Below are positions 49,917-62,833 of a stretch of DNA of 64,000 bases, piece by piece. Each line of letters begins with the position of its first letter. Within the stretch, counting starts at the first letter, position 1. The stretch comes from an uncultured Planctomycetaceae bacterium (GTDB lineage Bacteria > Planctomycetota > Planctomycetia > Planctomycetales > Planctomycetaceae): the NCBI GenBank assembly GCA_963976765.1, contig CAXBME010000009.1, positions 62,001 through 126,000 on the forward strand, read 5' to 3'. Under the pieces are notes generated by a model. The model saw only the letters and a list, made by a program, of their open reading frames with translations. It searched no databases and was not told the DNA's origin. Position numbers and translations under genes: made by a program.

Positions 49917-50912
49917 ATGAAGACAACTGTTTGTTCCCTGTCGATTGTCGCGATTCTGGCTGTATTGGCATTGCCGAATGCATTCGCGGATGACCAGAAG
50001 CCGAAAAAGGCCGTCCGTAAGATCACACCGGGACAGGTCATCGTTCCGTTCGAACGGATGAGGCGTATCTGGGGCGAGTTGCTAAGTGTCGATCTCGATA
50101 CACGGAAAGGGACGTTTCGCGCTGAACACAATGATGAGGTCTTCCATTTCACGGCCATGCCGTACGCCGAGATGCTGCACCACGCAACGTTTGGCGATCT
50201 GAGTGATTTCAGGATTGGCGAACGGGCCATCTTCCGAATGCACGAAAACGAAGCTGGCGAGTGGGTCTGGCTGACGTACATTCAGGACGAGATGAATATG
50301 CTCAACGGTCACAAGGAGTACTACTTTGTGGACGCCATTGACGCAGAGAATCGCTCGCTGTCATTCACCTGGGCCAAAGGCGATAGAACCTTCACCCGGG
50401 AAACTGGTCTGATCCTGCAGACTGACAAGGACACTCAGTTCTGGGAGGCAGGCAAGCCCGCGACGTTTGCAGACATTAAAGTCGGCGACAGGCTGCGGGC
50501 CAGGACACGGAGTACAGGGAAAGGCCGCGGGCGAATCGCATGGCATGTGTTTCTGGATGACGAAAGTCTGCTGAAGTTTCAGACTGAACAAATGGCGATT
50601 CATCAGAAGAAGATGACGGTCGAAGGGCTGCCAGGCTATGTCGATGTCGTCACGGACAACAGCCTTGAACTCACTCTCTTTCAAGAGGCCAGTGTTCTTG
50701 CAGAGGATCTCAAACCTGGCCGAAAGATTCGAGCTGCCGCTGCCGGAGTGAACCGCAAATCGAAAGGCAACCCGATAGAGGCTGAACTGGTGAGTTGCAA
50801 TCGAATCGGCAAGATCTACAAGGTTGCTTTGAAGACAAAAACTCGACCGGAAGACTTTGAGGTAACCGGTCTCGCTCGGGTCTGGACTATCGGGGAGCCA
50901 GCGGGCGACTGA
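49917..50912 (+). CDS. Secreted hypothetical protein (paralog of the preceding gene)
   Basis: Signal peptide ending AFA-D; shares GEL..D, MxPY and GLP..VD motifs with 48552-49763. Confidence 0.72.
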   Translation: MKTTVCSLSIVAILAVLALPNAFADDQKPKKAVRKITPGQVIVPFERMRRIWGELLSVDLDTRKGTFRAEHNDEVFHFTAMPYAEMLHHATFGDLSDFRIGERAIFRMHENEAGEWVWLTYIQDEMNMLNGHKEYYFVDAIDAENRSLSFTWAKGDRTFTRETGLILQTDKDTQFWEAGKPATFADIKVGDRLRARTRSTGKGRGRIAWHVFLDDESLLKFQTEQMAIHQKKMTVEGLPGYVDVVTDNSLELTLFQEASVLAEDLKPGRKIRAAAAGVNRKSKGNPIEAELVSCNRIGKIYKVALKTKTRPEDFEVTGLARVWTIGEPAGD

Positions 50913-53685
50913 TGAGCATTCTGAGTTTTGACCTGGGACTGACCGGCTTCGTCGCAAGGACATCATCTTCGGTGAAGCGGGCCAGCAGAATTTCGCCGTC
51001 GGTCGATCGGTTGCGATCATACGAGATGTAGATCATGCCGTCGGGAGCCTGGAAACCGTCCGGGTACGAAATCCCTTTCCGTTCGTCGAGCACCAATCCA
51101 CCGTTCCAGGACTTTCCGTCATCGTCGGACAACCACGCACTGAGCTGCACTCGCCCGGAGTGGCCGTCAATTCGGTCGCCGTGTTTAATCAAAAGCAACC
51201 GGCCCGAGGTGAGACGACGGATGTGAAACCGCGCGTTCGGGTGTTTGATCGCCGAGTCAGCGGGCATCGACCACGTCCGGCCATGGTCGGTCGACGTGCA
51301 TTCCATGATCCCCTTCCTCGTACGAGCCAGCATCCAGAGCGAACCGTTCTGGCGTTCGACAATCATGTGCTCGTGCCAGTCGGGATTCGGAAACGTCGCC
51401 ATGCCGCGTCGCTGCCACGTTGCTCCTTTGTCGACCGAGATGAACACGTTGGCTCCCCGCAGCGGATCAAGTTCGCCGAAGCAACCTTTGAACGGCCCAA
51501 ACCCGCCGCGTTGATCCAGTGAGACAGGCAGCATCCACTCGCCAGTCGAAAGTACAGTCGGCTTGTTGAGCGTGACACCATGCCAGATGCGTCGCGGTGC
51601 TGACCACTCAGGCTGATCGGAATCCGGGTTTTCACAGATGGCAGCCCAGACTCCGGCGCGACCATCAAACATATCCATCGACTGGTCGAAGATCAGCCAT
51701 AATCGCCCGAGCGGGTCCGTCCACAGATTGCCAACAAGAATGCTGCGGGGCCGAGGCAATTCGCTGGAGTGCGTATCGATAACCAGTCGCGGTGATGACC
51801 AGCTCTCTCCATCGTCATCACTTGTAGCCAGCACAAAGAATGCTTCCGGGCTATCACCACCGGCCACCCAGCAGGCCCACAAGCGACCGTTGGGTGTGCG
51901 TTCAATCCCGATCGTCATACCGTAGTCGAGCTTGTCGTAGTCGTAGTCCGGCAGCGGCGATGTGTTGAGCTTTGGCGGCACCATTGCGAAGTCCGCGATC
52001 TTCTCCATCTGCCGAATTCGTGCAGCTGTTTCCTCAGGCGACTCGGTCACGGGCTTGACCACTGCCACTTCTGTCCCTTCGCCAGGCACCATAAAGGCCA
52101 GCTTTCGGACACGTAGCCGCTCCCCCTTTTTGAGCATTTTCCGCCACGCGAAGACGCGGTTGATTTCCCCTGGAAAGAGCTGAAATTCAGGCGTGTCCAC
52201 CTTCTCGAAACCCTGCTTCTGCAGCGTCTCACTCTGGTTGGCCGAGTGCGCCTTGCTGAGCGTCATGACAAAGACTTCGCCCGACTTCTGACACTCAACT
52301 TCGTAGCCCTCGATGCTGGTCCGTACGAAATGGCGCCCCATTAGAAAGGCGGGGGCTTCGGTCAGTGTGTAGTCACGATCGGTGAAGAGTTTAACGCCGA
52401 CTTTCATTTCAGCTGCCTGTTGAGGTGGCTTCGGAATCGGCTGGCGTTGCCTGCCGGTTTGCGATGCGAACTCGCCCACCTGTTCCAGGCGGCCGAACGT
52501 GATCGACTCCTTGCGACTGGAAGAGGTGTCACCTTGAGTCACGCAGAGCCAGATCACTCCGCGGTGTTCGCGGAACGTCGGATACTGAAACGACCGAGTT
52601 GATTCGAAGCGATACTTCCTCTCCCAGCTCTTGCCGTCGCGTGAGACGTCAATGTTGAACACGCTCCGGTTGACGCCATGAATTCTGGTCGCCTCCTGCC
52701 AGCCGAGGTAGTACAGGTCACCAAACCGGTCGAACGTCGGCTTGGAATTCACACCGTTTGAAACAAACGGGAGCTCTTTGCCAACAGTCCAGGTTTTGCC
52801 GTCGCGGCTGGTTGTAAAGTGATAGTTGCCGCCATCGTTGCGGCAGATTGCCATCCAGGTTCCATCCGGCAGGCGATTAACGGCCGACTCACTCAAAGCT
52901 GCAGTTTGTGGCTCGTTGTAATGACCGAGAACTTCGAAAGTCACGAAGTCGTCATGCACAAGCGCCAGCGCATTCTGTTTGCCAGGAAAGTTGTTGATCG
53001 CCACATACGTCTGGCCATCGAATCGCTTGAATGAATCAAACAGGTAAAGCCCAAAGTCCCTTGCCGGCTTCGTAAACCCTCGAGCCACAGCGTCGCTGTG
53101 AAAGTGGCGAGGCTGCATGTCGAACGTTCCAGCGGACGTCTTCAGTCTGGCCTTGTGAATTGTCGTTGCGAACGTCTGTGTCGCGATGTTGAAGTCGCGA
53201 TACCATGTTTGTGACTGCCGTTTTCCAGGCTGCTCGCTGGCGAAGTAGCACCGCAAAGTTTTTGTGTCGACCTGAAGAATCCTTGGCACAAAACAGGCTC
53301 CGATCGGCAGCGTTTCATTCTCAAACACCTGCTCAGACCGCGCGAACGGAATGACCTTCTCCACTTCCAGGGTGTCGAGGTTGACGATCGACATCGCGCA
53401 GTAAATCTCGGGCCATGCTGCGCTTTCGCCACCTTTCACATCGTTCACTTCGGCGACGACAAAGGCTTGTTTGTCGACGAATTCCATCTCCGCATCGTGA
53501 GCACCTTTGATCTGCGGAGCGGTAACCGTCACCAGCCGACTCATTACCTCATCACCAGCCAGAGCGGCGTCCCAATCTGGCGGCAGCAGACTTTGAGATT
53601 CGCTTGCCGCACAGATATCTGGCCCAATTTCCGGCAGGCTGATGACACAACCGACGAACACGGCAACCTGAGTCCATTTGAGCAT
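50887..53685 (-). CDS. Secreted double BNR/sialidase-like beta-propeller protein
   Basis: Asp-boxes SRDGKTW, SDDDGESW, STDHGRTW and SDDDGKSW, plus the SYPDG motif. Confidence 0.85.
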   Translation of the reverse strand: MLKWTQVAVFVGCVISLPEIGPDICAASESQSLLPPDWDAALAGDEVMSRLVTVTAPQIKGAHDAEMEFVDKQAFVVAEVNDVKGGESAAWPEIYCAMSIVNLDTLEVEKVIPFARSEQVFENETLPIGACFVPRILQVDTKTLRCYFASEQPGKRQSQTWYRDFNIATQTFATTIHKARLKTSAGTFDMQPRHFHSDAVARGFTKPARDFGLYLFDSFKRFDGQTYVAINNFPGKQNALALVHDDFVTFEVLGHYNEPQTAALSESAVNRLPDGTWMAICRNDGGNYHFTTSRDGKTWTVGKELPFVSNGVNSKPTFDRFGDLYYLGWQEATRIHGVNRSVFNIDVSRDGKSWERKYRFESTRSFQYPTFREHRGVIWLCVTQGDTSSSRKESITFGRLEQVGEFASQTGRQRQPIPKPPQQAAEMKVGVKLFTDRDYTLTEAPAFLMGRHFVRTSIEGYEVECQKSGEVFVMTLSKAHSANQSETLQKQGFEKVDTPEFQLFPGEINRVFAWRKMLKKGERLRVRKLAFMVPGEGTEVAVVKPVTESPEETAARIRQMEKIADFAMVPPKLNTSPLPDYDYDKLDYGMTIGIERTPNGRLWACWVAGGDSPEAFFVLATSDDDGESWSSPRLVIDTHSSELPRPRSILVGNLWTDPLGRLWLIFDQSMDMFDGRAGVWAAICENPDSDQPEWSAPRRIWHGVTLNKPTVLSTGEWMLPVSLDQRGGFGPFKGCFGELDPLRGANVFISVDKGATWQRRGMATFPNPDWHEHMIVERQNGSLWMLARTRKGIMECTSTDHGRTWSMPADSAIKHPNARFHIRRLTSGRLLLIKHGDRIDGHSGRVQLSAWLSDDDGKSWNGGLVLDERKGISYPDGFQAPDGMIYISYDRNRSTDGEILLARFTEDDVLATKPVSPRSKLRMLISRPLAPR

Positions 53686-53851
53686 TGTTCTCTCTTCCTT
53701 TGAGCAGTCTCATTCGGTTTGCGGGCATGGAGGTGGTAACCTTATCCAGACTCGCCCGCGTCGTCGAACTTCGCAACCTTGTATGTCGTATAGCCTGACT
53801 GCTCTATTGTCTGACTGAACGTGTCAACTTTGCTTTTGGAATGAATCCGGG

Positions 53852-56098
<2,247 letters not shown>

Positions 56099-56403: not shown

Positions 56404-56814
56404 ATGGCGAGTCGAAAGCGAACTCAGATTACGGTCAACCCCCGAGCCAAGGTCTGGTTCGAGGTTGACGGCAACTATGTCTTCGGGTTGGGTATCTGTT
56501 CCATTCTGGAAGCTGTTGCGGAATCAGGATCAATCAAGGCGTCTGCCGAACTTGTTGGCAAGAGCTATCGGCATGTCTGGTCGCGAATTAAAGAGGCGGA
56601 AGAAGCGCTGGGAATCTCACTGGTCGAAACACAGGTTGGTGGCCCCGACGCACGACGCAGCTCCATAACCGAGGCAGCGGCCCAACTGGTGAAACGCTAC
56701 CGACGACTCCGCGAGCAGGTCTTCTCTGTCGTGGAAAAAAAGTTCGCTGACGACATCCAGACGATTGTCAATGAAGCTGCAAACGCTCCGCACCCGACCG
56801 CACCCGACAATTGA
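56404..56814 (+). CDS. ModE-type winged-helix transcriptional regulator (N-terminal domain only)
   Basis: KVWFE..FG.G..ILEAVAESGSIKASAELVGKSYRHVWSRIKEAEEALGISLVETQVGG; no TOBE/mop domains. Confidence 0.85.
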   Translation: MASRKRTQITVNPRAKVWFEVDGNYVFGLGICSILEAVAESGSIKASAELVGKSYRHVWSRIKEAEEALGISLVETQVGGPDARRSSITEAAAQLVKRYRRLREQVFSVVEKKFADDIQTIVNEAANAPHPTAPDN

Positions 56815-56886
56815 CACTCAACTTACGGTCGCTACGATCTCACACCAAATGGCACAGCCATGCAACCGGCACTGATATGCTATCAG
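56811..56886 (+). promoter_or_regulatory. Putative sigma70 promoter and downstream operator-like palindrome
   Basis: TTGACA-N16-TACGAT (56811-56838) and CTGATA-TGC-TATCAG (56872-56886). Confidence 0.5.
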
Positions 56887-56907
56887 GGGTGGATCGTGAT
56901 CACTGGA

Positions 56908-57519
56908 ATGAAATTAAACCCTGGGTTGCGGGGCGCATCGCGACTGCATGGTCTGACGCATGACAGCGACTCTGTAACGATGATGGAGTTGCTGACGCTG
57001 GTCGGAACAGGTGTGCTGGCCGCCGCCCTTTCGACACTCGTCGACCTGCATCTTCGAGTCCCCGGGCACGCGATCCTGAAAGTCGTCTTCCCGATTTCGG
57101 CAGGATTTGCACTGGTCCCTCGTCGTGGAGCAGGGACAGTCCTGTGCGGGTCGGCCCTGGCAACCGCTCTCTGTCTACGGGGTCTGGGGCTGGGTGGCTC
57201 AGGTCTGGGATTTGGAGCGTTGACCAGCCTCACAGCAATCGGCCCCCTTCTCGACTGGACACTCCGTCGTGCGAAGCCTGGGCGATCTGTCTACATCAGC
57301 GTCATGATTGCTGGATTGCTCGCCAATCTTGCCGCTTTAATCGTGAAGGCGTCGCAGAAAGGATTTGGTCTGGAACCCGCTGGTGGTCGGCCACTGTCAG
57401 TGTGGCTCAGCCAGGCCATTGTGACGTACACGGTGTGCGGACTCGTCGCGGGACTACTGAGCGCCCTGGTCTGGTTCGTGTCGCGTGCAAACAGTGTCGA
57501 TGGAGATGTGCCGCAGTGA
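56908..57519 (+). CDS. Small multi-pass membrane protein, ECF S-component-like
   Basis: About 200 aa with 5-6 TM helices and LHLRVPGHAIL...LVPRRGAGT. Alternative start at 56860. Confidence 0.6.
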   Translation: MKLNPGLRGASRLHGLTHDSDSVTMMELLTLVGTGVLAAALSTLVDLHLRVPGHAILKVVFPISAGFALVPRRGAGTVLCGSALATALCLRGLGLGGSGLGFGALTSLTAIGPLLDWTLRRAKPGRSVYISVMIAGLLANLAALIVKASQKGFGLEPAGGRPLSVWLSQAIVTYTVCGLVAGLLSALVWFVSRANSVDGDVPQ

Positions 57520-58277
57520 TTCTAATCGGCATCGACGACACTGACGTCGCCGGCTCGCGAGGAACTAATCAGCTGGCCCGCCACATCGTGCGGTCGGTTG
57601 CCGCAGACTGGCAATGCCTGTGGATCGTGCGGCATCAGTTGCTTGATGATCCGCGTGTTCCCTGCACGACAAAGAACGGTTCTGCATCAATCGCGCTGGA
57701 ACGTCGTTCCACATCAGACTCGTCTGGACCGGACACCCAGACTGAATCGGGCAAAGACATTACGCCCACTCAAATCAATGCGCTGCTGGCCAGCTGCCGG
57801 GATCTGATGCGTACCGAGTTTATTGATGGCAGCGATCCTGGACTCTGCCTTCTTTCCGGTACCTGCCCGCAAGAGGTGATGGACTGGGGAGTAAGGTGTC
57901 AGCACGAATTTGTCTCACGCGACGTTGCCTATCAGATCGCCAGAGACAACGACGTCCATCTGGAATCACTCGGTGGCACTGAGGATGGAGTGATCGGTGC
58001 CCTCGCCGCTGTGGGTCTTGCGTCATTAAGGAACGATGGCCGAATCGTTCAATGGCGTGAATGGCCGGATGACCTGTCGCACGAACAGAACGTCCAGGCT
58101 CTGGTGGAACGCGATGTGTGGATCTGCCATCGGAGCAGCGGCAACAAGATCAAACGCGGCACGGTCGATGTGGGCAAGCACCTCCGCCCCAACCTGCGAA
58201 GCGGTGCAGCGGTCCTGACCGTCGAGCCAGTCGAGAGCGCGACTCCGCACCATTATCGAGCCCTGAAACTTCCGTAG
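57516..58277 (+). CDS. Stand-alone TiaS N-terminal (kinase-like) domain protein
   Basis: IGIDDTD...GT, RHQLL.DPRVPCTTKNGSAS, SDPGLC and GVIGALAAVG. The GTG start overlaps the upstream stop (GTGA). Confidence 0.8.
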   Translation: MILIGIDDTDVAGSRGTNQLARHIVRSVAADWQCLWIVRHQLLDDPRVPCTTKNGSASIALERRSTSDSSGPDTQTESGKDITPTQINALLASCRDLMRTEFIDGSDPGLCLLSGTCPQEVMDWGVRCQHEFVSRDVAYQIARDNDVHLESLGGTEDGVIGALAAVGLASLRNDGRIVQWREWPDDLSHEQNVQALVERDVWICHRSSGNKIKRGTVDVGKHLRPNLRSGAAVLTVEPVESATPHHYRALKLP

Positions 58278-58289
58278 TGAGCGTCAGTG

Positions 58290-59180
58290 ATGCAACTTTC
58301 TAAACGACAATCGGACCGACGTATTCGAAATGCTTTCACGTTGATCGAATTGCTGGTGGTTATCGCGATCATCGCCATTCTGGTGGCATTGCTTTTGCCG
58401 GCTGTTCAACAGGCGCGCGAGGCCGCGCGTCGCGCTCAGTGTAAAAGCAATATGCGACAGATTGGTCTGGCGCTGCACAACTACCAGGAAGCTCACACCG
58501 TATTTCCTTTCGGCGTCCTGGGAACACAGGGCGGCGGTTCTGCAGGGCATCTCCTGACCACGTGGGAAACGTTGATCCTGCCGTTTGTCGAGCAGGCAAC
58601 GCTGCATTCTCAGTACGACTTTAATGTTCGTTTTGACCATAGCAACAACAGTGACACAGTGGAGCAGCCATTGGCCGTCTACATGTGTCCGACCCAGCCC
58701 GAAACGTCACCTGTCGACAACCTGTATGGCATCAGTCATTACGCCGCGAATGCAGGAACGACTCCGGGAGCCGACGACGGCATGCTGTTTCCACTGTCGG
58801 CGACGCGATTTCGGGATATTACAGACGGCACATCCAACACGATCGCTGCAGGAGAGATCGCGTTTGAATTCGGCGGCTGGGCTCGTGGTGCGATTAACTC
58901 CGGAGGTGGTGGAGGCGGTGGTGGCGGTCAGGGATTTGCGCGAGGTGTAATTCGCTGGTGGAAAGCGTCTCCCAACTGTGCTCAACCCGGAATGAATCTG
59001 CCTGCGACAAGCTGTTCGAACAGTAGCGAGCGACGATTCCAGTTCTCCAGCCCGCACGTTGGCGGCGCGCATTTTTCGCTGGGGGACGGAAGTGGGCGGT
59101 TCATCAGTGAGAATATCGACATCGACGTTTTTCGTGGCCTGGCGACGAGAAACGGCAGTGAAGTTTCGACTGACTACTGA
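58290..59180 (+). CDS. DUF1559 prepilin-type protein
   Basis: [43 protein letters not shown] and [15 protein letters not shown] (H-X9-DG). Confidence 0.95.
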
Positions 59181-59454: not shown

Positions 59455-59487
59455 ATGACAACAACAGAAAATGAGGCCGCGACGTGA
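59455..59487 (+). other. 10-codon uORF (MTTTENEAAT), or frameshifted 5' end of doxX
   Basis: AGGAGG SD 5 nt before the ATG; the TGA overlaps the doxX GTG (GTGA). Confidence 0.5.
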
Positions 59488-59888
59488 AGGTTTCAAAATC
59501 AAGCATCGCAGGGTGGGTTCTGAGCAGTCTCCTCGCTGCGCTCCTCATCGTTGGAAGCGCCAGTGGAAAGTTCACCGAATGGGAAGGCAAGGCGGACATG
59601 TTTGCGAAGCTCGGCTGGTCCGCCGAAGTCATGTTCAGGATCGGTCTCGTCGAGGTCGCCTGCGCAATCCTGTTTCTGATCCCGCGGACGTCGTTCGTTG
59701 CGGCAATTCTATTGACAGGTTATCTGGGCGGAGCGACGGCGACTCATATTCGAGTCGGCGACCCATTCCATATGCCCGTCATCATTGGAGTCGTTGTCTG
59801 GACTTCCCTGGGCCTGAGAGATCCTCGCATATTTTCTGCGGCGTTTCAGAAACAACCGAGCCGCCGCACTACAAGTTCTGAGGAGTGA
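59484..59888 (+). CDS. DoxX-family membrane protein
   Basis: IGLVEVACAILFLIPRTSFVAAILLTGYLGGATATHIR. Confidence 0.88.
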   Translation: MKVSKSSIAGWVLSSLLAALLIVGSASGKFTEWEGKADMFAKLGWSAEVMFRIGLVEVACAILFLIPRTSFVAAILLTGYLGGATATHIRVGDPFHMPVIIGVVVWTSLGLRDPRIFSAAFQKQPSRRTTSSEE

Positions 59889-60229
59889 TCGCGAGGATTT
59901 GCCATGATGCTTGAACTGCGCAGTGCAATTGATTCTCGGCGCGAAAAAGTGCGGCATCAACCGAAAATACCTGCCCAAGGTTACGCTGGGTGGTCGGTTC
60001 ATCGAAGCGGAATCCGGCACGATCATCAACGTCGAACAACGCTGCTACGACATCAAATGGAGTGACAATGGCGTCCATTGGCGAGCCGTTTTCACCGTTC
60101 CGAAAGACGACGTGGGGCGGGACACGGCGGTCGTGGTCTATGAGAAAGTCAACGCTGTTCGTCAGTGATCAACTCCGCGTTTTACTTCATCACGATTCTG
60201 AATCTATTCTTCACAGGACTCGTCACAGC

Positions 60230-62833
60230 ATGCAGATTCATCCGATCCGACTCATACTTCTGACACTCACCGTCACTGGAATTGCCTGGTGCGATGCGAC
60301 CGTTGCCTCCGATCTGCCGCGAGCCACACCAGAGTCGCAGGGCATCTCGTCGGCCTCGATTCGGACGTTTGTCGAAGCGACCGACGAGCAGGTTCAGTCG
60401 ATGCACAGCTTCATGCTGGTCCGACATGGCAAGGTCGTTGCCGAAGGCTGGTGGGCTCCGGAAGCCGCTGATAAGCCGCACATTCTGTGGTCGCTCAGCA
60501 AGAGCTTTACATCGACGGCGGTCGGGCTGGCCGTTGCCGAAGGGAAACTCGACATTGACGACAAGGTGCTCAGCTTCTTTCCGGAAGACGCTCCTGCCGA
60601 GCCGTCCGAAAACCTGAAGTCGATGCGCGTTCGCGATCTGCTGACCATGTCTGCCGGGCACGCTGCTGAACCGTGGTGGAGCGGCGATGACGTCTGGACG
60701 CAGCGGTTTCTCGCCGAGCCGGTCGTTCACCAGCCGGGCTCGACCTTCCGTTACAACACACCCGCGACGTACATGCAGTCGGCGATCGTGCAGAAGGTTT
60801 CTGGTCAAACGGTCGTCGATTATCTGACGCCACGACTGTTCAAGCCGCTGGGCATCGACAAGCCGACCTGGGACCAGAGTCCGCAGGGCATTTCGATCGG
60901 TGGCTATGGGCTGTATCTCAAGACCGAAGACATCGCGAAGTTCGGGCAGCTCTACCTACAGAAGGGGCAATGGAACGGGAAGCAGCTCATCCCGGCCGAA
61001 TGGGTCGCCCTCGCCACCAGCAAACAGGTCGAGAACGACAAAGCTCCCAGTGCCGGCAATCCCGACTGGCGGCAGGGTTATGGTTTCCAGTTCTGGCAGT
61101 GCCGTCACGGAGCCTTTCGAGGCGACGGTAAGGACGGCCAGTTCTGCATCGTGCTGCCGAAACAGGACGCCGTCATCGCCATCACCGCAAAGACCGGAAA
61201 CATGCAGAAGCAACTCGACCTCGTGTGGGAGCACCTGCTGCCCGCGTTCCAGGACGAACCTCTCGCTGAGGACGCCGCCGAAGCCGGCAAGCTGCACAGT
61301 ACTCTGTCGAATCTGAAACTGGCCAACGCTTTTCTGGAAGCACCCGCTTACGTCGGCCCGCCAAAGTCGCCCGATCACGCAACGACGAACCGAGCGTTTC
61401 AGGGCATCCCAAGCATGGCCGTCTCACCGGGTGGGCGGCTGTGGGCGAACTGGTATGCCGGCGTGACTCCGGGCGAGGATCACAACAACTACGTCGCCGT
61501 TTCGACGAGCGACGATGACGGAAAGACGTGGCGAGAAGTGCTGGTCGTCGATCCCGACGGCCCCGGTCCGATCCGGACGTTCGACCCGGAACTGTGGGTT
61601 GCTCCGACGGGAAGACTGTTCGTTTTCTGGGCTCAGTCGCAAGGGCACGATGGCTCGGTCGCCGGAGTCTGGTGCGTCCACACCGACAACCCGGACGATG
61701 AAACGCCCGAATGGAGCCAGCCGCGCCGGCTCACCGACGGCATCATGATGTGCAAGCCGGTGGTGCTCAGTTCAGGCGAGTGGATTCTGCCCGCGTCGAC
61801 CTGGCGGGCGACGGACAACAGCGCGAGGATGATTGTCTCGACGACGCTCGGTCGGAGCTGGTCACTGCGAGGAGCCTGTAACGTGCCGAAAGACGACCGG
61901 GCATTTGACGAACACCTCATCACCGAACGTCAGGACGGCTCGCTGTGGCTGCTCGCTCGCACAAAGTATGGCATCGGCGAGAGTATCTCGACCGACCGGG
62001 GCAAGACGTGGCCGGAACTGACACCGTCGAAGATCCCTCATCCAAGTGCCCGCTTTTTTATCCGGCGACTGAACTCCGGGAACCTGCTGCTGGTCAAACA
62101 TGGCGGCATGGATCAGAAAACCGGTCGTTCGCACCTGACCGCGTTTGTCTCGAAAGACGACGGCCAGACCTGGACTGGAGGCCTGCTGCTGGACGAACGC
62201 AGCGGCGTGTCCTACCCCGACGGCCAGCAGACCGACGATGGCACAATCCGGATCATCTACGACTTCAGCCGTACGGGTTCACGGCACATCCTGATGGCGA
62301 CGTTTCGCGAGGAAGATGCCGCCGCCGGGAAGCCTGTCAGCAACAACGTTAAACGGCGACAGCTCGTCGGCGAAGCCTCGGGCGGTCAGGAAAAGAAACC
62401 TGAACCCGTCCGCGACAACGCCGACGGTGAAGCACTGCGTCGAGCCAATACCGGCTCGTTCAGCTCCGTAAACTTTCAGGCGGACAAGTTCAGCAAAGAC
62501 GCGAAGCTCTTTACTGACCGTCCCTACGTCGTCGAGGACGACCTCCCAGCCTTACGCGGCGCGAGCTTTCTCCGAATCCCGCTCGACGGCCGCAAGACGC
62601 TCACGTGTGAACGAGCCGGTACGGTCTGGTTCCTCACACCGGTTCCCGACCGCAACAAGGACTCGTGCAGCCAGGAGCTGACAAAACAGGGCTTCAAAAC
62701 AGTCAGCGTTCCCGAAGTCCGACTGTTCAACCCAATGTCGACCGCCAACTTCTGCACGCTCTACCAGAAGGACTGCAAAGCCGGCGAAACCATCACCGTC
62801 GGTAAGTGGGCCGTCCCGCTGTTCATGCCGTGA
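60230..62833 (+). CDS. Serine hydrolase (beta-lactamase class C-like) fused to a BNR/sialidase domain and an LFTDR module
   Basis: SLSK (SxxK), FRYNT and YGFQFW, then Asp-boxes SDDDGKTW, STDRGKTW and SKDDGQTW, and SYPDG. Confidence 0.87.
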   Translation: MQIHPIRLILLTLTVTGIAWCDATVASDLPRATPESQGISSASIRTFVEATDEQVQSMHSFMLVRHGKVVAEGWWAPEAADKPHILWSLSKSFTSTAVGLAVAEGKLDIDDKVLSFFPEDAPAEPSENLKSMRVRDLLTMSAGHAAEPWWSGDDVWTQRFLAEPVVHQPGSTFRYNTPATYMQSAIVQKVSGQTVVDYLTPRLFKPLGIDKPTWDQSPQGISIGGYGLYLKTEDIAKFGQLYLQKGQWNGKQLIPAEWVALATSKQVENDKAPSAGNPDWRQGYGFQFWQCRHGAFRGDGKDGQFCIVLPKQDAVIAITAKTGNMQKQLDLVWEHLLPAFQDEPLAEDAAEAGKLHSTLSNLKLANAFLEAPAYVGPPKSPDHATTNRAFQGIPSMAVSPGGRLWANWYAGVTPGEDHNNYVAVSTSDDDGKTWREVLVVDPDGPGPIRTFDPELWVAPTGRLFVFWAQSQGHDGSVAGVWCVHTDNPDDETPEWSQPRRLTDGIMMCKPVVLSSGEWILPASTWRATDNSARMIVSTTLGRSWSLRGACNVPKDDRAFDEHLITERQDGSLWLLARTKYGIGESISTDRGKTWPELTPSKIPHPSARFFIRRLNSGNLLLVKHGGMDQKTGRSHLTAFVSKDDGQTWTGGLLLDERSGVSYPDGQQTDDGTIRIIYDFSRTGSRHILMATFREEDAAAGKPVSNNVKRRQLVGEASGGQEKKPEPVRDNADGEALRRANTGSFSSVNFQADKFSKDAKLFTDRPYVVEDDLPALRGASFLRIPLDGRKTLTCERAGTVWFLTPVPDRNKDSCSQELTKQGFKTVSVPEVRLFNPMSTANFCTLYQKDCKAGETITVGKWAVPLFMP

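Follow-up and report, generated by a model that had tools for sequence, protein, structure and literature searches.

A planctomycete operon pairing an S-component fold with a TiaS-like kinase domain probably marks an undescribed way to acquire tungsten or molybdenum

What does a TiaS-type kinase domain do in a bacterium when it stands alone, directly after a membrane protein with the fold of an energy-coupling factor (ECF) S-component and behind a ModE-type regulator? The question is raised by a 64,000-nucleotide stretch of DNA from an uncultured Planctomycetaceae bacterium (assembly GCA_963976765.1, contig CAXBME010000009.1, positions 62,001 to 126,000 of the forward strand), referred to here as the window, in which four genes between positions 56404 and 59180 encode the regulator, the membrane protein, the kinase-domain protein and a DUF1559 protein. 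The four genes are a real, conserved module, and the module is firmly tied to tungsten and molybdenum (W/Mo) by its regulation, gene context and phylogenetic profile. The operon probably marks an undescribed way to acquire these metals, and a probability of about 0.8 is given to W/Mo acquisition as the function that the module serves.

All four genes are read from the plus strand, as described in a first-pass annotation made from the sequence alone. The regulator occupies 56404-56814 (136 amino acids), the membrane protein an open frame at 56860-57519, the kinase-domain protein 57516-58277 (253 amino acids, GTG start) and the DUF1559 protein 58290-59180. The GTGA overlap reported between the membrane and kinase genes, which couples the two in translation, is present at 57516-57519, and so is the 12-nucleotide gap that precedes the DUF1559 gene (58278-58289). 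Alignment with 60 homologues favors GTG 56896 as the start of the membrane gene, giving a protein of 207 amino acids (56896-57519); ATG 56860 falls within an operator. Conservation of the layout was followed in the best 80 of 551 relatives in GTDB-type genomes, a close set that leans to close kin since only the best 80 relatives were retained. A membrane gene lies directly 5' of the kinase gene in 72 of these 80 loci, confirming the expectation that the genes co-occur in other genomes; the remaining eight comprise three with less than 500 nucleotides of upstream DNA and five with no match. Start and stop codons share a four-nucleotide NTGA overlap in 54 of the 72 pairs. A DUF1559 gene is found within 700 nucleotides downstream in 35 of the 80 loci, and a ModE-like gene is present in 26. 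No fusion of the S-component with the kinase was seen in the 80 loci, longer or shorter proteins not having been searched. The kinase family as a whole numbers 3893 proteins, the best relatives being nearly all from Planctomycetota, and viral contigs yielded one weak fragment only. A 3.8-kb Pimelobacter plasmid record (L099:733-3254) carries only a membrane gene of the P-G-H type, a kinase gene and a Gly-rich protein. Two short contigs of one metatranscriptome match the membrane and kinase genes (202 and 226 nucleotides, with 1 and 0 differences, respectively) but were set aside, as neither transcription nor co-transcription can be read from contigs.

The membrane protein has no match in Pfam or NCBIfam. 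Its AlphaFold 2 model (pLDDT 89) has six transmembrane helices in a fold of the ~20 kDa class, and in a structure ranking (VIA, 48,161 chains) the top 15 rows are all S-components or ECF complexes, with RibU as the best S-component match (Z 11.7, root-mean-square deviation (rmsd) 3.2, 160 residues aligned), and unrelated chains start to appear at Z 6.6; a Z under 13 is modest for helical bundles. Foldseek ranks S-components likewise, but with an E of only 0.05. Independent support comes from a distant set, 80 loci kept out of 427 from a metagenome scan with a distant alignment, in which EcfT genes adjoin family members in eight loci. Together, the model and the relatives in full ECF operons uphold the initial S-component assignment. 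A small-xxx-small motif in helix 1 is a hallmark of S-components, and the corresponding G51 and A55 are conserved in at least 90% of 61 homologues. Among 73 aligned members, the P, G and H of a loop-1 motif are conserved at 95, 100 and 89%, and one Asp at 99%. The nearest named family is PF09819, the YkoE-type S-components of group I ECF transporters (TM-score 0.60; E 8e-6 for the member in L160). Relatives with an ATPase and EcfT of their own occur, whereas the window member is solitary: ECF A and T genes had been found missing nearby, and the sole EcfT/CbiQ match of the genome sits in a cbiM-cbiQ operon, leaving no dedicated ECF module. S-components with long C-terminal extensions also occur (L140:8677-10275, P0269, P0294, P0309 and P0314). 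The four proteins read have one more helix plus a soluble domain there.

An S-component fold with vitamin-binding relatives invites a salvage reading, in which the S-component would import a W/Mo-pyranopterin, or a dephosphorylated or precursor form of it, and the kinase-domain protein would re-phosphorylate or activate the pterin, as kinases trap imported vitamins. The pairing of a TonB receptor with a solitary S-component in some loci of the family is the cobalamin layout of BtuB and BtuM (PMC6072759). The BtuM/BtuB system and the window operon have in common the S-component fold, a host without an ECF module, a conserved His and Asp and an outer-membrane partner in other phyla. They differ in that BtuM belongs to another family (Z 6.9 only) and is under B12 control, as opposed to ModE-type or molybdenum cofactor (Moco) control here. 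In addition, the operon holds what is predicted to be a coupled cytoplasmic ATP enzyme, and in Planctomycetes DUF1559 or PEP-CTERM proteins replace the TonB receptor.

The predicted ATP enzyme is the 253-residue protein, for which the matches to TIGR03280 (E 1e-14) and Pfam TiaS_TCKD (E 5e-4) are both below cut-off; a TiaS profile gives E 4e-12, and the full-length TiaS model NF040849 scores 26 bits against a cut-off of 600. The fold matches TiaS 3amt at Z 20.4 (rmsd 2.2, 154 residues aligned), and the alignment ends near residue 170 of 253 where TiaS has about 420, in agreement with the proposal of a TiaS kinase domain that lacks the tRNA-binding domains. The DDTD, following Thr (T17), P..T..NG.S and GVIGALAAVG motifs listed in the first-pass annotation are all present. 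Residues D7, D8, T9, D10, G16 and T17 are found in 160 of 160 homologues and R39, Q41, T51 and N54 in 159, T17 being aligned with Thr18 of TiaS. Compared with TiaS (3amt, 3amu, 3u02, 4rvz and 5xob), the protein shares the N-terminal kinase-domain fold, the GIDDTD motif, Thr18/T17, P..T..NG and GxIGALAAVG. It differs in having a family-specific C-terminal beta domain (about residues 172-253) instead of the tRNA-binding C-terminal domains, in its transport operon context, in the presence of TilS in the genome and in the new invariant motifs RHQ, GSDPG, DGR and RP. Compared as part of the whole protein and not modelled alone, the C-terminal domain matched no named fold. Methanogenesis marker 11 (TIGR03280) is the best NCBIfam match, over the kinase domain only (model positions 135-285) and at 54 bits against a cut-off of 255.8; marker 11 extends further at its N-terminus. 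TAL-effector and protease rows in the kinase search were set aside as chance matches.

Fold and motif identity with the N-terminal part of TiaS could also point to a bacterial TiaS-like enzyme for tRNA or nucleic-acid modification whose neighbors are unrelated, and one source labels close homologues as TiaS. Such a role is highly improbable for a protein of 253 rather than 420 amino acids, of which only ~150-170 residues align, that is coupled to an S-component in 72 of 80 close loci. The genome also encodes TilS, as expected from the initial view that the protein is not the tRNA-Ile2 enzyme.

Turning to regulation, the protein upstream of the pair carries a ModE-type winged helix-turn-helix (HTH) domain, with matches to the TIGR00637 ModE repressor domain (E 9e-15, below cut-off), PDB entry 2ijl (E 7.5e-7) and ModE 1o7l (E 4e-4); no TOBE/MOP match is present in its 136 amino acids with Pfam and NCBIfam profiles. 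The promoter recorded after the regulator gene reads TTGACA-16-TACGAT at 56811-56838 on the plus strand. It is a consensus match only, and since one match to the sigma70 pattern compares with 1.7 expected by chance, it has no significance alone. By eye, -10-like hexamers occur just 5' of the operator in many homologous loci. A palindrome had also been recorded here. Two exist, and the one that stands as operator is an imperfect 24-bp dyad at 56846-56869, placed over the inferred transcription start, and not the perfect palindrome CTGATA-N3-TATCAG at 56872-56886, which was rejected as it is absent from the recurrent dyads of 71 upstream regions. The dyad CAAATnGCAC-N4-GTGCnATTTG is common to the upstream regions and directly follows the -10-like hexamer; its right arm is degenerate in the window. 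With an operator matrix, 36 of 70 homologous upstream regions score at least 18.7, while none of 1420 shuffles reaches 12; those 36 regions trained the matrix. The window site was left out of the final matrix and scores 19.4 with it. The operator is found in 22 of the 26 loci with a ModE-like gene versus 14 of the 44 without, and a second copy lies directly 5' of the DUF1559 gene in five loci. It was not found in 12 Phycisphaerae-like loci.

As an independent check, five regions were chosen for a close homologue of the HTH protein; three have a site right after the HTH gene and before a DUF1559 gene (scores 21.5 to 30.3) and two have none. Close regulator homologues adjoin modA in three genomes. 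In one of these, which has no kinase (G509; L233:1320-6040, G509:C170), modA is followed by a MOP-less ModE-type HTH gene, two operator sites, a DUF1559 gene, modB and modC. In the other two (G501 and G469), the HTH gene follows modA, and a pattern search placed a strong site (31.8 and 30.2, respectively) before a DUF1559 gene elsewhere in the genome. These DUF1559 proteins fall in subfamilies other than that of the window protein. The HTH protein is predicted to bind the 24-bp operator and to repress the operon. A genome-wide matrix scan for a wider regulon gave 19 sites scoring at least 11, and none of the seven other top sites inspected precedes a Mo/W gene, so that a wider regulon is not put forward. 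A degenerate operator pattern applied to 151 genomes matched about as often as a reversed control and provides leads only. In a further locus (L229:2300-7181, G470:C85), an HTH gene and a gene for a regulator resembling periplasmic binding proteins (PBP) stand before modABC, and the locus also has a divergent DUF1559 gene and an operator-like site (25.2).

The known ModE regulons (ModABC, TupABC, WtpABC and MoSto) share with the window operon a ModE-type HTH, an operator over the promoter and co-location with uptake or storage genes. They differ in three respects: full ModE has MOP domains, which the window regulator lacks; the transporter in those regulons is an ATP-binding cassette (ABC) system that depends on a substrate-binding protein, which is not so here; and the ModE boxes of E. 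coli (ATCGNTATATA-N6-TATATANCGAT) and Desulfovibrio (CGGTCACG-N14-CGTGACCG), as given in PMC545781, differ by eye from the 24-bp operator with its N4 spacer. The same paper states as unclear how ModE proteins that consist of a DNA-binding part only sense molybdenum. One answer could be that the S-component is a receptor and the kinase-domain protein a Thr-autophosphorylating signal kinase, the two together supplying the metal signal to the MOP-less HTH protein. S-component folds have been found in sensor kinases (PMC11109136), TiaS is described as a dual protein and RNA kinase (PMC11938285), and T17 is invariant. This sensing role is nonetheless unlikely, as the HTH protein occurs without the kinase in four genomes (G509, G501, G469 and G418) and a close HTH homologue is present in only three of 19 kinase-bearing genomes. 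Other lineages use ArsR-PBP regulators or riboswitches, and full ECF A/T modules stand in 8 of the 80 distant loci, as transporters have.

Gene neighbors provide a second line of evidence for W/Mo. In four close loci, the pair sits in a moaD-AOR-S-component-kinase-(DUF1559)-fwdDBA operon next to moeA genes, and other close loci adjoin formate dehydrogenase (FDH), MobA, MogA or an FdhF/YdeP enzyme. The 80 distant loci include 57 with an S-component, 20 with a TonB receptor and 38 with a Mo/W marker within 5 kb. Among the 51 that span at least 4 kb, 26 have a marker, or 19 when the ModE-like gene is excluded. These markers are ArsR-PBP regulators, TupA/B, WtpA, MOT1, FDH subunits and the Mo-storage protein, the Tup, Wtp and FDH labels being partly assigned by reading cluster representatives. 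Nine distant loci, which tell against pterin salvage, place the kinase beside a homologue of the Mo-storage protein (E 4e-64); most of them also carry TupA/B or MOT1, and none includes an S-component. In these loci (L152, L161, L166, L172, L173, L194, L203, L210 and L211) a single Mo-storage gene is seen beside the Tup and MOT1 genes; several of the contigs look methanogen-like. In one locus (L190), two tandem Moco or tungsten cofactor (Wco) riboswitches come after a FecCD-type ABC set and separate the kinase gene from that of a TonB receptor; FecCD-type partners recur in L098. Both features fit the import of a cofactor. Two unnamed lipoprotein-like families also recur in distant operons, one of ~300 amino acids (L175:5774-6682 and 12 further loci) and one of ~145-170 amino acids (L169:2878-3309 and 13 further loci), with no Pfam match in the members scanned.

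The phylogenetic profile offers a third line. Of 151 Planctomycetia genomes, 19 have the kinase and 46 an enzyme of the AOR family, which is a tungsten-type family. AOR is present in 17 of the 19 kinase-bearing genomes versus 29 of the 132 others, and the association is retained within two families (12/13 vs 3/23 and 5/5 vs 2/25) and in a pair of genomes from one genus, where G482 has both genes and G396 neither. Two controls do not track the kinase: NiFe hydrogenase (0/19 vs 9/132) and the B12-dependent methylmalonyl-CoA mutase (1/19 vs 29/132). With the regulator type and the gene neighbors, the AOR profile supports the Mo/W link anticipated in the first-pass annotation. A close FwdB clade is present in 13 of the 19 kinase genomes, and since AOR tracks the kinase better (17/19), a role in the methanofuran pathway was set aside. 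A TupA match occurs in 12 of the 151 genomes and four of the 19, none being found in 13 of the 17 genomes with both kinase and AOR; at the thresholds used, five of the latter have neither a TupA nor a ModA match. Canonical ModA at first seemed rarer where the kinase is present (3/19 vs 66/132, E<1e-30), an effect that was dropped because it vanishes within the window's own family (3/13 vs 7/23). A weak-scoring long type of ModA is common in the family; one such tandem-domain protein of 568 amino acids is encoded with permease, ATPase, MoaD-like and MoeB-like genes (G000:C5:188198-192774). Among 42 FwdB-like matches, 16 have one in-frame TGA, probably encoding selenocysteine (G514, G456, G407, G440, G403, G479 and ten more). 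Nearly all of these fall in a clade at 54-58% identity, apart from the AOR-linked clade of 27 genomes, which are all AOR-positive.

The Mo/W neighbors might instead reflect a lifestyle shared with the users of another micronutrient, such as cobalamin, a thiamine precursor or a methanofuran or methanopterin precursor. YkoE-type PF09819 is the nearest named family, single loci adjoin MetE or RACo, Fwd/Ftr genes are among the neighbors, and the marker-11 family shares the kinase domain. Against such a substrate, no cobalamin or thiamine pyrophosphate riboswitch was found in 50 loci scanned with Rfam, the B12 mutase is present in one of 19 kinase genomes, kinase and AOR occur without a close FwdB in four members of a single genus, and neither the ModE-type control nor the Tup, MoSto and MOT1 neighbors would be expected. 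This explanation is judged unlikely, if still ahead of a tRNA enzyme.

The remaining gene encodes a DUF1559 protein (58290-59180) with a prepilin cleavage motif (N_methyl), a PF07596 domain (E 3e-53) and the H-X9-DG C-terminus. By a strict motif count, the window genome has 40 prepilin frames, which, like the relatives of the kinase, indicates a planctomycete host. One paper classes DUF1559 proteins as solute-binding and counts 74 of them in Rhodopirellula (PMC2754498). Among the 35 copies linked to the pair, 30 are 50-76% identical to the window protein but no more than 38% identical to the next of the 40 paralogues in its genome, so that they form a dedicated DUF1559 subfamily; the other five do not follow this pattern. 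In the consensus of the subfamily, Trp and Arg flank a long stretch of Gly, and one may speculate that this stretch binds an oxyanion. PEP-CTERM DNRLRE proteins join the module in seven loci, and in Gemmatimonadota and Acidobacteriota a TonB receptor takes the place of DUF1559. Three Acidobacteriota loci (L091:3067-4272, L092 and L096) also have diheme proteins with a GEGP motif (NF041762) and TonB receptors divergent from or near the pair.

How, then, might the parts work together? Across loci, the transporter varies (solitary S-component, full ECF, FecCD-type ABC or Tup), as do the outer part (TonB, DUF1559/PEP-CTERM or lipoproteins) and the regulator (ModE-type HTH, ArsR-PBP or riboswitch). 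Since the kinase and the W/Mo theme stay constant, the most economical view has the kinase act on what all these arrangements share, the incoming metal species. Arrival of the metal in a complex is implied by a TonB receptor or S-component, the Tup, MoSto and MOT1 loci imply that the end product is the oxyanion, and the kinase loci with MoSto and oxyanion transporters but no S-component point to a metal rather than a heterocycle. Under W/Mo shortage, the repressor would leave its operator, and the DUF1559 protein, where other phyla use a TonB receptor, would capture W/Mo in complexed form on the cell surface. Transfer of the complexed metal across the inner membrane would fall to the S-component, with no ECF ATPase module involved. 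The kinase-domain protein may then bind Mg-ATP through D7, D8 and D10 and, in a phosphoryl transfer like that of TiaS that involves T17, release or activate the metal oxyanion. The oxyanion would thereby be trapped in the cytoplasm for cofactor insertion into AOR, Fwd or FDH. MoSto is a precedent for ATP-driven activation of an oxyanion. This metal-centered mechanism, import of a complexed metal followed by ATP-dependent release or activation, is favored tentatively, at a little under even odds.

Several observations weigh against this account. TonB receptors and FecCD-type partners would imply a bulky substrate, which a metal-pterin cofactor fits equally well, and most solved S-components bind organic vitamins. 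The positions of His133 and Arg140 of TiaS are not conserved in the family, so that ATP binding must differ from that of TiaS. The genomes of the profile are related and not independent, so that Fisher values overstate the association; 29 of the 46 AOR genomes lack the kinase and two of the 19 kinase genomes lack AOR. In most close loci, the scanned neighborhood contains no Mo/W enzyme or transporter, and only one of the 50 Rfam-scanned loci (of 160) has a Moco riboswitch. The window genome, which also encodes AOR, FwdDBA and FDH, already has ModABC-like and TupABC-like transporters, a point that counts for pterin salvage as well. TiaS itself acts on a heterocycle carbonyl, which salvage would parallel. 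On the other side, MoaC is present in 148 of the 151 genomes including all 19 with the kinase, so that none of these is a pterin auxotroph, and a repressor and operator of the same type front modBC in G509. Salvage ranks second, as the less likely account. From the first-pass proposal of a cofactor salvage module, the S-component, the kinase domain, the co-occurrence and the Mo/W link stand; salvage by a needy organism does not, given MoaC in 19 of 19 genomes and MoeA, MogA, MobA and MoaD in the window genome. Its pyrimidine (or a vitamin) as substrate is unlikely, and a pterin or cofactor stays a live rival to the metal.

The neighbors of the operon in the window (50887-56098 and 59484-62833) look unrelated and include a GH5 protein (53852-56098), a DoxX protein (59484-59888) and two large proteins labelled by eye as BNR/sialidase-like. 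In a search of full-text literature, with few subscription papers and no supplementary regulon tables, neither short TiaS homologues from bacteria nor an S-component for W/Mo nor the operator described here turned up in any paper.

The uptake of tungsten at trace levels and its discrimination from molybdenum pose a standing question, and no Tup transporter shows up in many of the AOR-bearing Planctomycetes sampled. A bolder version of the metal-centered account, somewhat unlikely at present, is a third entry route for tungsten besides the Tup, Wtp and Mod ABC systems, in which a W/Mo S-component would be energized by a TiaS-fold 'tungstate kinase' in place of EcfAA'T, the kinase using ATP to strip or activate the metal, with DUF1559 proteins as substrate-specific surface receptors. 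If true, a first class of substrates could be assigned to a DUF1559 subfamily, and the TiaS kinase fold would gain a second biological role, one common to bacteria and archaea. The four small proteins and one operator are directly testable. The module also offers a handle on the function of the very numerous planctomycete DUF1559 proteins, with a Mo/W-type operator in front of one subfamily and modBC in the same operon as a member of another, and it bears on whether the TiaS kinase fold has a role outside tRNA modification.

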